Source: Octopus vulgaris (Eukaryota). From it: DNA of 64,000 nt. The notes beneath the pieces were generated by a model. That model saw only the letters and a program-made list of their open reading frames with translations. It did no database searches and was not told where the DNA came from. The translations under genes were made by a program, and so were the position numbers. Of the stretch, positions 11,110 through 61,261 are shown in pieces. Where the stretch lies: assembly GCA_951406725.2 (NCBI GenBank), contig OX597838.1, forward strand, positions 30,442,001 through 30,506,000. The letters run 5' to 3'. Position 1 is the stretch's first letter, and each line of letters begins with the position of its first letter.

Positions 11110-12090
11110 TTATTCGGCATCTGAACCGAGTCTGTCCAGCATGTGGTAGTTGAAATGGACTCGGTTTTCGAGGAAGACTTCGTTGGTTTTCTCCAGACTG
11201 ACCGGTAAGCAACAACATCGGTCAGTGAGCGCCAGTTTGTATGTGATGAGCCAGATGATGAAGATGACTATGAAATTGGCCATGCCATGGGCCGCAAAGT
11301 ACGTGGACAGAATGCTGATGTTGTAGTCCGTGATGTCCCACTTGTACGGGGAGCAGATGATCGTGCCGTAGTGGCACAGCCACGTGCCCTGCACGAGTGT
11401 GACGAACGAGCGAACGAACGGGAAGACCACCTGGTTGCGATAGTGGAACTCCAGTATGGTCACCACGACGGTCATAATGGCACAGTAAGTGACCAAGTTC
11501 TCACCGATCGAAGCCAGGCTGTCGTCTCGTTCATCGTCCATGACATAGTGACCGAACAGAATCGCCTCGACGCCGAACGCGAATATGAAGATGCAGTAGT
11601 CGAGGCCCTGCGGCAGGCTATAAGTGCACGTCTGTGACCCGATGTTCACCAAACACGAGAGTCCGAAAGCCACAAGGATTATACAGGACCGCAATTTCAA
11701 CATACTATTTTTAGCGTCGTTCAGTTCAGCACCCGATCCAGCGCCACCACCGGCCCAGTTGATTCCAGGCACATGTCGGTAATTTGTGACGAGTAAAAGG
11801 CCACAGATGATGAGGCAGATCTCGATGAAACTCTGTATCAGCTGCTTCCAGCGTTGCTTGCTGCAGGGGTAGACGAGCGACGAATGAAACTCGACGTGTT
11901 TCCACCTCATGAAGAAGAAGATGCGGGTCGTTTGCACGGTCCACCATAACGAGTACAGGATGAACATGACCCCGAGGATGAGGAAGTCAATGTAAGCACA
12001 AGCGAGTTCGGTATTGCTGTTGTTGCTGCTGCCGCTGCCACTGGCCGGTGCATCGCTGCCTCCTTGACTTACGTTTGCACTGTGCACCAT
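11110..12090 (-). CDS. TMEM45/DUF716-family multipass membrane protein, 326 aa, single coding exon
   Basis: Open 981-bp ORF with about 7 hydrophobic segments and family-like motifs LWWTV, FGVEAILFGH, RSFVTLVQGTW, WD and YFAAH. Splice acceptor (tttatttcag, AG at 12098-12099) lies 7 nt before the ATG. Confidence 0.85.
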   Translation of the reverse strand: MVHSANVSQGGSDAPASGSGSSNNSNTELACAYIDFLILGVMFILYSLWWTVQTTRIFFFMRWKHVEFHSSLVYPCSKQRWKQLIQSFIEICLIICGLLLVTNYRHVPGINWAGGGAGSGAELNDAKNSMLKLRSCIILVAFGLSCLVNIGSQTCTYSLPQGLDYCIFIFAFGVEAILFGHYVMDDERDDSLASIGENLVTYCAIMTVVVTILEFHYRNQVVFPFVRSFVTLVQGTWLCHYGTIICSPYKWDITDYNISILSTYFAAHGMANFIVIFIIWLITYKLALTDRCCCLPVSLEKTNEVFLENRVHFNYHMLDRLGSDAE

Positions 12091-12157
12091 CCTTTAACTG
12101 AAATAAACAAACAGAAGAAAATTATCCATCATCATCATCATCATCGTTAATATTATC

Positions 12158-26317: not shown

Positions 26318-26394
<77 letters not shown>

Positions 26395-26541
26395 CGACGG
26401 GCTTCTTTCAGTTTCCGTCTACCAAAACCACTCACAAGGCTTTGGTCGGTCCGAGGCTATAGTAGAAGACACTTGCCCAAGGTGCCACGCAGTGGGACTG
26501 AACCCGGAACCATGTGGTTGGTAAGCAAGCTACTTACCACA
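26134..26541 (-). mobile_element. SINE family A
   Basis: Reverse-complement copy with an expanded internal (CA)n tract. Confidence 0.85.
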
Positions 26542-26756
26542 CATGTATGTATGTATGTATGTATGTATGTATGTATGTATGTATGTATGTATGTATGTAT
26601 GTACATAAAAAGTTTTTATCAGCCATTTCTTTCCCCGGTCTGTGTATCTTAATATTCAATAAACACATTTTTCTAAGAAAAACATTTTTCAATAAACATT
26701 TTTCTAACAAACAAAAGTATTCTCTGGAACCAAATTCGACGCTCTCTCTCTCTCTC

Positions 26757-26811
<55 letters not shown>

Positions 26812-26816
<5 letters not shown>

Positions 26817-27149
26817 AAAAAAGCAACAAGAATGGATTAAAATCTCGGTACGATCGTTTCGTACGAGGACATCTTTAATAAGCTACAAAAAATGCAGTGA
26901 ATACAGATGGCTCGTACTCGTCAGCCGAAAAAACATCAGAGAATTCACTGCATTTTTTGTAGCTTATTAAAGATGTCCTCGTACGAAACGATCGTACCGA
27001 GATTTTAATCCATTCTTGTTGCTTTTTTCCTATTTGTAATCACCCCACTTGTCGTATGGTTAACACCATATAGATTTCCGGTGCATCCTAGTTAAGGACC
27101 ATATTCATGTGAATTCTTTAGAATTCACTTGAATCTCAATTACTTAACC

Positions 27150-27150
<1 letters not shown>
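26812..27150. mobile_element. Penelope-like element end with 91-bp perfect inverted repeat, in (TA)n
   Basis: Arms at 26812-26902 and 26943-27033 with a 40-bp spacer. Contains a hammerhead and has (TA)n on both sides. Confidence 0.7.
26845..26928 (-). ncRNA. Type I hammerhead ribozyme, canonical core
   Basis: tcgg-CTGACGA-gtacgag...ctcgtac-GAAA-cgatcg-TA-ccga: stem I 4 bp, stem II 7 bp, palindromic stem III ACGATCGT, GUA cleavage triplet. Confidence 0.8.
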
Positions 27151-27216
<66 letters not shown>

Positions 27217-27222
<6 letters not shown>

Positions 27223-27598
27223 CACTTAAAGCATGCAGAATCCATGCTCCATACATCTGAACCTTTCCCATCGAGTGAAGATGTTTTTCTATAGCAGTGT
27301 GGGAGCATTCCATTTTCTCTGCCAGTTCCTTTGTCGTTTGACGAGAATTTTCGTGTAAAAGTTGGTTTAATCGCTCTGCATCGAACTCAACTGGACGGCC
27401 AGAACGTGGTGCGACTTTAAGGTCAAAATTCTCATTTTTGAACTTGGCATACCAATCACGAGCAGTTCTTTCGGCTATGGCACTCTCTCCATACACAGCA
27501 CAAATGTCCCGAGCAGGTTTTGCGACCTCAGAACCTTGATTAAAAGCAAAAAGAAGGAGGTGTCGAAAATGCTCGTTTTCCTTAACTTGACATTCCAT
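27217..27598 (-). pseudogene. Mariner transposase N-terminal fragment (mellifera-like), truncated at (TA)n
   Basis: EHFRHLLLFAFNQG...ICAVYG...WYAKFK...PRSGRP...GAWILHALS (decayed WVPHEL motif). Confidence 0.85.
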
Positions 27599-28008
27599 TT
27601 TAATGACCTGAAAATAAACAGAAATTAACAAAAATTAACTAGAAAAATGCAAAAAAAAACCCAAAATATATTCCAAAATGATACAAAAATAGAATGTGAT
27701 GTGCAAGTTGTGATTCTTCGATGCGGTTGGTGAAGCTGGTTGAAGGGAAGGCCGCAATTCGTTGACGGGGTCACCAAATGTAGAGGTTATGTGTGTGTAT
27801 CAGGTGAAGAGATCCAAAAGGAATGTGTATGTCTTTCAAGTAAACAAATGAGTGAATAGATTCATAGTTAAAAATAATTTATTCACTGGACTTAATTTGT
27901 CGTTGGTACACAATTCTTCACTACATGCAAAATGTTGACAACTGCTACGAGTTGCTAGAAATAGAGAAATAGAGACAGGGTACATCTGTGGAAGTGAGGT
28001 GTCAGAAA

Positions 28009-35199: not shown

Positions 35200-35975
35200 A
35201 TATATATATATATATATATACTTGTATATATAAATAGATGTGTGTATTTTTCCCTTGTTAACAATTAACCTGTACATACATACATACACACACACACATA
35301 TATACATACACACACATAAACAAATGTCTGTATGGATGTTTTAAGTAAAGATTACGAAAGAAAAATAACTCAGAGTCTAGTGGCATCTATGTGATCAATA
35401 TAAACAAGTATATATATATATATATGTATATATATGTGTGTGTGTGTGTGTGTTTCTTTATATATAATTTTTATACCTATATTATTGCGGCGTACGTACA
35501 CCTCGTTCCCTTATGTATGCTTACATTCTATCCATTTGTACGACTTCTAAAAACTTTCTCTATACCTCACTTTCTGTCTTTCTCTTTCTCGCCTTGATTC
35601 TTTGGTCCCCCTCTTCCCCCACGAATGAACAAAACCAACATACCAGGTTTTGTTCATTCATGATATATTTTGAATTCGTTTCACTGAAGAGCAAGAGACG
35701 TAGATAATACGTTAATTGCGAAATCACAGGTGATCTGGAACTAAATTCTGTTTTTAAATGTCTTGCTTCGAGAGCTGCATTCGGTACGATTTGTTTATTT
35801 TTGGTAGTTATGACTTTAAAAGTCCGTCCTAGCGTGTGGCATTTATGTGTAATAATGCCCTCTATATAATATAAATAAATATTTTCAAGTTAAAAAATTT
35901 ACAGATTTTTTCTCTTATGAGGTTTTTCACGCTAACTACCTGATAATTTCTTATTAAGATTTTATCCTATTTTTA

Positions 35976-46134: not shown

Positions 46135-48112
46135 TCAGCCTTGCACAGTGAAACTCTTTTCAATCTGGAGTTCAATCAAGTCCATGAAGCAGATCTTCGT
46201 CTCTCCACTGTCGAGAAGTTCACGGATTTTTCTGTTACATGGTTTATAAGGGACGTCCACATTCTGCACAAGGTACTTCGAGATGAGATAGTCGAGGGCG
46301 TTGATCTTCGTCACGCCGCTCTGGTGGTCTTTGCTGTTCTTCACCTGCTGAGCGGCCGACAAGCACTTCTCCACGAAGGCCGGGTCCTTCGCCGACACCG
46401 GCGACACGTTCTCCTTGCTGCTGCTACTGCTGTGGCGCTTATGACCCGCTGCTGCTGCCGCCTCTTCGTCCTTGCCGTTTTTCGCGGCGCGCCCCACCTC
46501 TTCGCTCTCGTCGAGGCTCGGCTCCTTCTTCTTCCTCCGTTTGTTATTACAATCACTCTCCTCCGACTCCCCTTCATCATCAGCATCATCATCACTACTG
46601 CCTTCACCTTTACTCTTAGTCCCGCCTCCTCCTCCTGAGGCCCCTCTCTTTTTGCTGGTGACGTCTGTGGTGAGCATACTTTCCGAGTGACTAGATTCCT
46701 CCCTGTTCGTTCTATTTTCACTAGCGTTATGGTTCCGACTCTGACTTGTATCTTCTTTATTTTCTACTTCATCGCTTTTGTTGTCTCCGCTGTCACCATC
46801 ACTGCTCTGGCTGTTATTACTACTGCTGTTAATACTACTACTATTATTATTATTATTAATATTATCGTTATCATCATCATCATCATCATTATTATTATTA
46901 TTATTATTATTACTATTACTACCACCACCGTTGCCAGTAGAAACGCTGTCACCATCACCGCATCCTTCACCAGAGCTATCCTCTCTCTCGCTATTTTGTC
47001 CTCTAGTTGTTGTGGTTGTTGTTGTTGTTGTCACTGGTGTTGTCGTCGTTAGTGAATTTGGTGTTGTTGATGCTGATGTTGTTGTTGTTGTTGTTGCTGC
47101 TGCTGCTGCCTGGTTGCCATCATGTTGCTGCTGCTGCTGGTGATGCTGGCTGTTGTTGTGATGCAAACTTCTGCTCGACAGACTCGTTTCGCTTGTCGCC
47201 TGCGAACAGCCGTTCAGGAGATGATGCATAAGATTTAGATAATTCTCTGGGGCCCTGTTTACCGAGCTGGGCGGCTCCCACCGGTCGTTGAGGACATCTT
47301 TACTCGAATCGTCGACATCGATGTCCACTTCCATGTCGGCTGCTTCGTCCTCAGTTCCACCCTTGTGGTCAATATCTGTGACGCCAATATCTTTCCGCTT
47401 GGCCGCTGTTGCCGTGGACAACGGCAGCGAGGACAACGATGATGATGATTCCATGGGCTCCTCCTCTTTGTTTTCTTCCTCCCCATCTTCCCCGTACCTT
47501 CGGCGCTGACGTTGTTGTTGTTGTTCGGAGATGGCAGACGAGCAGGTTGTCTTTGATGGGGTTTCCTCATCAATTGTGATACAGTTGCTAGCGTTGTAGC
47601 TGTTGATCATGTCTGGGGCTAATCTCGAGGAAGGGGCCACTCGCTTCCCGTAACAAGGACCATTCGAAGATGTGATGTTGTTACTGCTGTTGTTGTTGTT
47701 GTTGTTGTTGCTGTGGCTGCTTGTGAGGTCCGTAGTGTTACTTGGGCAGTTCATTACTCGGGGCCAGCTGAGGGTTGAAGACGCGATGGGGCATGACTGG
47801 GGCCGACTCAGCAGTCTGATTTCATCAGAAGGGGGCACATCCCTTGTGCGACATGTCATGGCAATGTCTGGTTGTAGGCGGGCATATTTAAGTTGGTCGT
47901 CAAATCGCCACTGGTAGCAACCGTCGACAGCGACGATGGGTGGTGGTGGAGGGGGCAACGGCGGCACCACGGTCATCATTGTGGCCTGTCGCATCTGGTG
48001 CTTTTGTCTGAGGAGTTGGCGCAAATGTGACGGCGCTCTTTGGCACTCGCAGGACTTGATCAAGCATAAGGGCCGTTCTTGAAAGCCGCAGTTTTGTGGT
48101 TGCTGCTGCTGA

Positions 48113-48174
<62 letters not shown>

Positions 48175-48276
48175 TTCCTTGGGGTTGCGTTTTGTTGAGT
48201 GTACGCTGAGGTCCAGAGGTTCCATGGCTTCGTCTTCTTCAATCGGATTCATGTAATTTGTGATGTGAGATTCCAT
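46135..48276 (-). CDS. 713-aa mostly disordered protein with PLDLS (CtBP-type) and LxxLL motifs and a short ordered C-terminal domain; single coding exon
   Basis: 2142-bp ORF stays in frame through many triplet repeats and has GC-richer coding composition. Acceptor tattttcag (AG at 48348-48349) lies 71 nt upstream, and in-frame stops precede the ATG. Motifs: EPLDLS, RPLCL, LRQLL, and C-terminal ALDYLISKYL...IRELL...CFMDLIELQIEKSF. Confidence 0.85.
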
Positions 48277-48629
48277 TTCACTGGTTCTCTGTGGCTTCTT
48301 GGTGCTGCCAGGTGGGTTTAATTAACAAATTCTTCACCCATTCAAAACTGAAAATATACAAAAAATAAAAAAAAAGAGAAAAAATATTAGTCACAATTCA
48401 AAAAAAATTCTTGAGATCAAAAAGTATAATTTTTTCACTTTTTATATATAAAAAAAACTAACAAAAAAAAAAGCAAAAAAGATTCAAAATATCTGTTTCA
48501 TGTCCATTTTTCTATGTCAGCATGAGTTCATTGGATATTTATTTGCAGTGATGGGATGCTTCTCCTGTCATCAACTCTTAATTCTTTTACAAATAAGAGG
48601 TTGTCTTATTCTTTTATCATCATCATCAT

Positions 48630-60450: not shown

Positions 60451-60665
60451 TCTTCTTTTGCTGGTGTCTCAAATTTAGGTTAAATCAGTGTTTCTGAAAG
60501 GGGAGGCCTATGGGACGGTCAGACAAGTTGTTTTGAGAAAATTTGGTTTAAATGTTTGACAACTCAGCGCCCTCCATTGGACAGGGAGGGGCGTTTTGCT
60601 TGTGTATATATATATATATGGCAAATGAAAGACGGAAGATGGAATATATGAGAATTTATTATCTA

Positions 60666-60771
60666 ATCACGACAATTGTTTCGACACATTTAGCATCGAT
60701 CCCTCATGCGTGGAACACTCCACAACTGGTTCAGGATCATCTGGTGGAGCAGGTGTGTCTCATCAGGTGAT
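60666..60771 (-). ncRNA. Type I hammerhead ribozyme, canonical core, with branched stem II insertion
   Basis: atcac-CTGATGA-gacaca...tgtgtc-GAAA-caattg-TC-gtgat: stem I 5 bp, stem II 6 bp, palindromic stem III ACAATTGT, GUC site. AATAAA follows shortly after (60655-60660). The host element ~60619-60840 is flanked by (TA)n. Confidence 0.82.
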
Positions 60772-61261
60772 AGATAGACAGTACCACAATGTAACTTCTC
60801 ATTAAGCTACCAGGTGTAAACCATTCATTTCATTATCCAATATACATATATATATATATTTGATTTTTTGATTTTTCCAGTTTCAGCTAATGAGCTGTGG
60901 CCATGCTGGGGCACCGCCATATATATATATATATAAACTGTACTTGGAGAAGAAGAAACGAAACGAAACGAATTGAATCGAATCGACGTGAGGGCGCTCA
61001 GTCATACAATAGTGTAATGAATAAAATATATGCATACATACATACATATATGTACGTACCTACATCTACATGTATATATACATGCATATATAAATATATA
61101 TACGTGAGTACAGGACACCACAAATAGACGTAGAACTCAACGAGAAACGAAAACGTAAAAACAAGCATGGAACGGACCATTTTTTTTTACAACGAAAAAA
61201 CAGAGTACGAGACAAACTAAACAAGGAAAAAACCCCTTCATCAGCTGTCCCTAGTTCAACT

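Follow-up and report, generated by a model that had tools for sequence, protein, structure and literature searches.

Head-to-head ends of a Hydra-clade Penelope-like element with a putative hammerhead in Octopus vulgaris, and the pairing of long and short ends in its family

Positions 26815 to 27150 of the 64,000-nucleotide stretch of Octopus vulgaris DNA that we analysed (hereafter the window) almost certainly represent two 5'-truncated 3' ends of one Hydra-clade Penelope-like element (PLE), lying head to head with their 3' ends outward. We explain the locus as an ORF-less stump of a young PLE of this clade, likely made by two-ended priming on one uncleaved RNA, and give this explanation as a whole a probability of about 0.8. 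The locus itself is ordinary transposon debris of a known kind.

The insertion and its surroundings

The insertion is made up of the following parts.

26815-27150, no strand assigned: whole insertion, 336 bases; its arms match the pLTR of two ORF-bearing copies, L101 and L102, and its ends match the two fixed ends of the family
26815-26946, minus strand: short-end arm with the complete hammerhead; 3' end 34-37 nt past the predicted cut
26943-27150, plus strand: long-end arm; 3' end 154 nt past the predicted cut, 5'-truncated inside loop II and without CUGACGA
26943-26946, no strand assigned: microhomology of 4 nt at the inversion junction, common to both arms (overlap 4; junction found at three genome places)
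27034-27150, plus strand: one-sided tail of 117-120 bp, equal to the 5' leader in full-length copies and ending 55 nt before the ATG
26812-26902, plus strand: left arm of the exact 91-bp inverted repeat
26943-27033, plus strand: right arm of the exact 91-bp inverted repeat
26761-26814, no strand assigned: left (TA)n target microsatellite, from the sequence
27151-27217, no strand assigned: right (TA)n target microsatellite, from the sequence

The earlier note on this DNA had described a perfect 91-bp inverted repeat with a 40-bp spacer, and recomputing the arms returned exactly that: 26812-26902 and 26943-27033, each of 91 nt, are reverse complements without a mismatch, separated by 40 nt and extendable neither inward nor outward. 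The outermost three bases (ATA, 26812-26814) are indistinguishable from the flanking (TA)n, and because (TA)n lies on both sides of the insert a target-site duplication is unreadable. Both arms are 98.6-100% identical to the pLTR of L101 and L102 (L-numbers are labels of the genome loci compared in this analysis), the long arm at 99.0% over 208 nt directly before the ATG and the short arm at 99.2% over 133 nt. The insert itself has no ORF. The previous reading of a PLE end with a partial inverted pLTR thus stands as far as the PLE end is concerned, but the locus is a stump of two truncated ends rather than an ORF with a partial inverted pLTR.

A Mariner transposase fragment (27143-27634, minus strand; Pfam HTH_48, E 7.9e-18) ends at the right (TA)n. 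No host gene adjoining the insert was identified among the 50 of 138 open stretches of the window that were scanned. Elsewhere in the window, a 327-codon open stretch at 11113-12093 (minus strand) matches DUF716 (E 1.4e-07) and is probably a host gene or exon, and a 728-codon open stretch at 46138-48321 (minus strand) gave zero Pfam matches at E 1e-4. Microsatellites dominate the repeat search of the whole window, which also holds two dispersed repeats that are SINE-like in size, one of 213 bp (D19; 26347-26559 and six other places) and one of 250 bp (D20; 1459-1708 and five other places). The Rfam matches over the whole window (150 listed of 335) were miRNA-type, driven by microsatellites and below gathering score, and were discarded; so were the miRNA matches on the hairpin, which merely reflect the inverted repeat.

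The parent element and its age

We searched the genome assembly (2.8 Gb, 227 contigs) with a 24-nt ribozyme core and obtained 352 exact matches, as against 0 for the reversed control. Copies joined to a PLE RT/GIY-YIG ORF, which the earlier note had proposed to look for, were found in L101 and L102, both with end sequence directly before the ATG and L102 with it again after the 3' UTR. Their frames, 1090 and 1091 codons from stop to stop, are uninterrupted and 99.2% identical in DNA, with 1071 aa from the ATG in L102. The element has a repeat unit of 4722 bp and a 3' UTR of about 1.3 kb. In both copies, an RT motif (YRDD) and a GIY-YIG motif (IIYKC..SYVG) lie in a single frame. The L102 protein has RWR at 37, DKT at 124, CNCRIKSKC (CxCX5C) at 932, CQLC (CxxC) at 1029 and CIH (CxH) at 1060; it has no GxK[FY] and, by eye, no CxxC between the GIY and YIG halves. 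Pfam GIY-YIG matched the C-terminal piece of another copy (L053) at 23.0 bits, with a cut-off of 22.6, and a Pfam search of the two whole ORFs gave zero matches at E 0.01. Among 23 database relatives, 22 are 33-40% identical and 633-769 aa long, many of them with PF26215, and the one exception, from Octopus sinensis, aligns with 19% of the query at 66% identity. The ORF owes its extra length to Asn-rich inserts, which lie behind the thumb and within the linker.

A sister Hydra family (L114-L118, L176-L225) has 988 exact core matches, frames of 976-984 codons (proteins of about 980 aa), a unit of 4650 bp and an imperfect palindrome, ACGAUUGU; three of its loci (L114, L117, L118) are arranged pLTR-ORF-pLTR. 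The window family has these features of an EN+ PLE: a single RT/GIY-YIG ORF, a hammerhead pLTR by partial tandem, an inverted 5'-truncated copy and a one-sided tail.

The available text of Craig et al. (2021, PMC8557442) describes the Hydra clade as having an RWK motif, no GxKF/Y, DKT in place of DKG, a CxCX5C linker, CxxC and CxH, an endonuclease without CCHH and a length generally <3 kb; its Octopus bimaculoides member, Hydra-1_Obim, is 2507 bp long and associated with (TA)n. As far as that text goes, the window family shares the C-terminal GIY-YIG, the RWK-type motif (as RWR), DKT, CxCX5C, the lack of GxKF/Y, CxxC and CxH around the E and N, the canonical hammerhead, insertion in (TA)n (nearly all of 111 scored ends adjoin TA-rich repeats), the inverted 5'-truncated copy and the tail at one end. 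It differs in its size (4722 bp and 1071 aa, against <3 kb for the clade, 2507 bp for Hydra-1_Obim and 633-769 aa for the relatives), in a tail of about 120 bp, where the tails given there are 30-40 bp, and in its Asn-rich inserts and 3' UTR. The length in the clade description is descriptive and non-diagnostic, and the window family exceeds it because of the Asn-rich inserts and the long 3' UTR. As judged from its motifs, and from a comparison by eye with named Hydra sequences taken from supplement text, the element is a new Hydra-clade family; its hammerhead and N-terminus are unlike those of Hydra-1_Obim by eye, which argues for another family.

Each ORF-bearing copy is at most a candidate working source, since the 3' UTR of L101 is interrupted by an assembly gap and L102 has a complex inverted flank. 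At L102:104-8980 (G000:C9:84.175-84.184 Mb) the full-length copy belongs to a 2857-bp inverted duplication, 99.0% identical, which takes in about 1 kb of host flank, with a long-end arm as its cap; it is either captured flanking DNA or an assembly problem.

The identity of the arms had previously been taken to imply a recent insertion and a possibly active lineage. The youth of the lineage holds, given the 99.2% identical ORFs and near-identical copies, but the argument from arm identity does not: 0 differences in 91 positions are compatible with up to 3.2% divergence, and between unrelated insertions the expected difference of the arms is itself just 0.18 bases in 83 compared positions, so that arm identity is a weak clock and was rejected as such for the window copy. 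Longer arms at L052 and L053 have 0/873 and 0/775 differences. Six of 49 tails are identical to that of the window, with a median of 2 differences in 120 nt. At a rate of 0.0036 per million years, taken from the available text of PMC13282606, 0.5% between arms would correspond to about 0.7 million years, in a sample biased towards young copies. The lineage is young, and its ongoing activity is plausible. An Octopus vulgaris repeat library contains 31 recently active Penelope-like families, and the words "Hydra" and "hammerhead" are absent from the available text of that paper (PMC13282606); the library may already include this family.

The hammerhead and its predicted behaviour

The short-end arm contains these ribozyme features, all on the minus strand.

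26843-26930, minus strand: type I hammerhead (descriptor scan, Rfam, fold, compensatory changes in sister families)
26930-26925/26848-26843, minus strand: stem I, UUUCGG/CCGAGA, 6 pairs including one G-U
26924-26918, minus strand: CUGACGA core
26917-26911/26867-26861, minus strand: stem II, GUACGAG/CUCGUAC, 7 bp with a loop of 43 nt
26860-26857, minus strand: GAAA
26850-26857, minus strand: stem III palindrome ACGAUCGU, with predicted pairing between two ribozymes
26849, minus strand: A17, with the cut predicted 3' of this base from the hammerhead consensus

Read along the minus strand, the order is UUUCGG, CUGACGA, GUACGAG, the 43-nt loop, CUCGUAC, GAAA, CGAUCGUA and CCGAGA, with a GUA whose A is at 26849. 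Three candidates in the window fitted a hammerhead descriptor: 26930-26843 (minus), 60771-60666 (minus) and a weak one at 35678 (plus). At 26843-26930 (minus), Rfam Hammerhead_1 scored 21.4 bits (E 0.0084), which is below the gathering score of 34. The isolated motif folds with a z of about -2.7 to -2.9 (200 shuffles), and it has the CUGANGA, GAAA, NUH and three helices closed by stem I that define type I. Across six related motifs of the same genome, 98% of 102 cells are paired and 4/17 pairs are changed on both sides, one of them within the palindrome (G-C, A-U and G-U across motifs); these motifs are few and related, and their compensatory changes are therefore supportive and yield no probability.

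The earlier call of a minus-strand hammerhead is borne out, with a stem I of 6 pairs in place of the inner 4 given before, and the hammerhead consensus likewise predicts the cut after the A at 26849. Its description as perfect applies to the core letters but not to stem III, in which only 2 pairs close over GAUC, and only the minus arm of the inverted repeat carries a ribozyme, since the plus arm lacks CUGACGA. Like published type I hammerheads, the motif has a long stem II (7 bp), a short stem I and a palindromic stem III thought to be dimeric, and such motifs occur in pairs 100-700 bp apart on opposite strands; unlike them, it has a loop II of 43 nt and no unpaired base at the 5' end of stem II.

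The 2-pair monomer hairpin of stem III has a predicted energy of +2.4 kcal/mol, against -10.0 kcal/mol for an 8-pair intermolecular duplex, and the window ribozyme is predicted to need a second copy through its palindrome. Dimer-dependent hammerheads of this type cleaved poorly in vitro (PMC4209133). The lack of CUGACGA in the plus arm means that there is no ribozyme partner in cis. When a minus-strand read-through transcript (27151-26812) was folded, the pairing probability of stems I and II was 0.000 and the hammerhead-compatible ensemble was 75.8 kcal/mol worse, against 4-5 in an isolated or natural context. If transcribed from outside, the ribozyme in the stump is thus predicted to be sequestered by the 91-bp hairpin, which would make it a likely passenger here.

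We found that 508 of 525 genome matches to the 22 nt after the cut retain the family base 3 nt before it, which points to templates that were mostly uncut. Truncated arms starting at the cut number 11 (9 insertions) among 17 matches, and those starting 3-5 nt downstream number 11 among 26; the script had labelled 13 and 13 as truncated, and L226, L240, L274 and L275 were removed by eye as small indels or point changes. In upstream windows the counts were 3/6, 0/0 and 4/7, a step without a sharp peak, and the pools at the cut and upstream differ because the upstream search patterns exclude an older subfamily. The sister family has 5/7 truncated arms at the cut and 5/9 upstream, without an excess at the cut. 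We draw no conclusion on cleavage in vivo from these start positions. Two insertions (L229/L230 and L233/L234) have both arms starting <=2 nt from the predicted cut. At L143:5004-5247 (G000:C3:69.907 Mb), the predicted cut marks the start of an arm, to which a short 18S rRNA-like piece is joined (Rfam SSU_rRNA_eukarya, 21.8 bits, E 0.00025, below gathering); this junction is either a template switch or an rRNA fragment ligated to cut RNA.

The motif at 60666-60771 has the same topology with other stems and another palindrome, ACAAUUGU, and the descriptor scan agrees with the previous statement that it is the same fold with different stems. It belongs to a stump at 60620-60845 of an older PLE family whose other copies are 81-89% identical. 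By eye, this stump comprises a ribozyme-bearing short-end arm on the minus strand and about 50 bp of long end on the plus strand, in (TA)n, and GIY-YIG-like matches to the Hydra ORF lie upstream of the ribozyme in 3/12 loci. Further unrelated type I hammerheads with palindromic stem III were seen in the flanks of L027, L067, L106 and L172.

Pairing of long and short ends and the origin of the inversion

We scored the 73 loci in which the first 100 of the 352 24-mer places lie, and located their 3' ends by BLAST relative to the predicted cut. There are two fixed end sites, at 34-42 nt (short) and about 154-161 nt (long) after the cut, that is, 175 and 55 nt before the ATG; they are about 120 bp apart and both abut TAT-like bases. 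Both ends fall at these sites in 37 two-armed loci, every one of which is head to head and pairs a long with a short end; long+long and short+short were each seen 0 times. L157 and L158 (G000:C1:67.416 and 67.464 Mb) are the same insertion in an inverted segmental duplication, 48 kb apart, in opposite orientation and with a shared 382-codon frame nearby, and merging them gives 36/36. In the sister family, the first 30 listed pairs are likewise 30/30 long+short, with ends at +36 to +41 and +161 to +162. Under free choice, the chance of these pairings would be 0.5^36 and 0.5^30; both samples were chosen by an exact 24-mer and lean to young copies. Single arms account for 34/73 loci (16 long, 18 short), and L105 retains nearly the full length and has a short end. 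Tiny second arms consistent with long+short are seen by eye at L121 and L135. The misfits are L147, in which one arm ends inside the tail, L138 and L148, in which inverted pieces start at internal sites, and L116 of the sister family, in which one arm ends 16 nt past the cut.

The two arms of an insertion resemble each other more than they resemble arms elsewhere. Mismatches between arms of the same insertion were 38/7550, where 169 would be expected from other insertions (33 loci), and in the sister family 68/10342, against 174 expected (28 pairs; 54 of the 68 come from two loci). Both arms thus appear to derive from one source copy, a result that fits one RNA molecule and two transcripts of one locus alike. 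The 5' ends vary: the short-end arm reaches further 5' in 19/36 insertions and in 11/28 of the sister family, the long-end arm in 15 and 13, with 2 and 4 ties. Both arms stop <=15 nt apart in 8/36 and 9/28 insertions, where 1.4 and 1.2 are expected (0/20000 permutations), although BLAST arm ends are fuzzy at palindromic junctions and ties are possibly inflated. Eight loci (L044, L060, L065, L066, L070, L102, L129, L147) have 5' ends within about 10 nt of the truncation point of the window copy (26943, in loop II), possibly an RT pause or a microhomology hot spot.

Twin priming is, in our judgement, the probable origin of the stump. The GIY-YIG domain would nick both strands of a (TA)n target, each cut 3' end would use one of the fixed sites, which are separated by about 120 nt, to prime reverse transcription on a single uncleaved molecule of element RNA, and the two short cDNAs would join via 4 complementary bases. 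Arms stopping at the same place would be expected if both RTs reach the same RNA end. In LINE-1 twin priming, two primers use one RNA and leave an inverted 5' part joined by microhomology; there the second primer anneals internally at positions that vary, with hardly any overlap between the two parts, whereas the window family has a fixed second site and overlapping cDNAs.

The closest biochemical parallel comes from Poseidon, a PLE of Anolis (Frangieh et al., 2024, PMC11167929). According to the available text of that study, the protein, for which a dimer is predicted, cleaves both strands in vitro, extends them and starts at two internal, tail-bounding sites on uncleaved RNA. The window family resembles it in having two fixed tail-bounding 3' ends downstream of the ribozyme, a template that would be uncleaved and an AT-rich target; it differs in that its ends lie 175 and 55 nt upstream of the ATG, 120 nt apart and beside TAT-like bases, one per side. 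Against our mechanism, the same text reports that the start site in vitro did not differ between strands and finds no homology of the cut DNA to the start site, whereas both ends of the window family adjoin TAT-like bases.

An origin by self-priming or fold-back, in which one cDNA or antisense RNA folds on itself and is copied, has been proposed for Penelope elements of Adineta vaga (Arkhipova et al., 2013, PMC3846280), and the available text of that paper argues for self-priming on an antisense template from palindromic junctions. Those elements are similar in their head-to-head inverted pLTRs with an optional tail on one, microhomology junctions and Asn-rich inserts between RT and EN, and dissimilar in their low copy number and in the antisense self-priming model, where we propose twin priming. 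Self-priming would account for arms that share one source and for our own palindromic junctions at which both arms end at the same base (L146, L221). Nevertheless, we regard it as unlikely. Had a cDNA from the long site folded back, the short-end arm could never be the longer one 5', yet it is so in 30/64 pairs and in the window; a cDNA from the short site would have no tail to copy. That either arm may reach further 5' excludes fold-back of one cDNA as a general route, and antisense self-priming alone leaves the two fixed ends, one per side, unexplained. Equally doubtful, to our mind, is an origin in which a single locus supplies two transcripts, possibly held together by the palindrome, each serving one RT of a dimer. 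The compensatory change that keeps the palindrome, its -10.0 kcal/mol duplex, the dimer predicted for PLE protein in the available text of PMC11167929 and locus L143, in which one arm stops at the cut and the other runs through the ribozyme, all speak for it; two free RNAs, however, offer no obvious cause for the constant long+short start or for the excess of co-terminating arms.

The same junction occurs at exactly three genome places (window, L002, L009), as it would if the hairpin were a non-autonomous mobile unit of retrozyme or MITE type. L002 lies 306 kb from the window insert, differs from it by one base, has other flanks and may be its daughter or parent copy. This is nonetheless a very improbable account of the locus: L009 has its tail on the opposite arm and variants of its own (its long arm shows three diagnostic differences), almost every other two-armed locus has a different junction, and non-LTR retrozymes consist of tandem non-coding monomers, each with a type I hammerhead (10.64898/2026.07.22.740005), whereas here there are no tandem ribozyme monomers and one ribozyme lies in an inverted layout continuous with a coding element. 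Least probable of all is an assembly artefact from a fold-back read. Among the contigs listed from 4 public runs (32/137 records), both arms are covered and none spans the junction, although contigs cannot show absence, and the inverted repeat at L102 extends into about 1 kb of flank. The flanks of the window insert, however, are not inverted, its arms end at the two biologically fixed sites, two further loci have its junction, and the long+short rule is followed by 66 other insertions.

Beyond the stump, we consider it an even chance that two-ended priming is how Hydra PLEs normally integrate, with an RT dimer priming from both ends at two hard-wired sites on the same RNA; one cDNA would then be displaced by the other. 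In the literature searched (subscription papers and bioRxiv supplements were outside its scope), we found no count of long/short pairing and no application of twin priming to PLEs. The literature already describes inverted ends, one-sided tails, pLTR hammerheads and Hydra elements of octopus, and how inverted ends of PLEs form is called an open question in the available texts of PMC8557442 and PMC11167929. What our analysis may add is the counted long+short rule, with comparisons of sequences favouring priming on one RNA. Two young families with 66/66 long+short insertions, same-source arms and independent truncation points narrow the models for inverted-end formation, and the Hydra clade is extended to a 4.7-kb, Asn-expanded, high-copy form in an octopus genome. 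If two-ended priming is indeed the normal route, the "optional tail" of all PLEs would record, as a fixed signature, where each end had primed, and a copy with a single arm would reflect an event in which one primer failed. With a spacing of 120 nt, an ORF that is intact and young copies in the hundreds, this family would then be the cleanest one in which to demonstrate that route.
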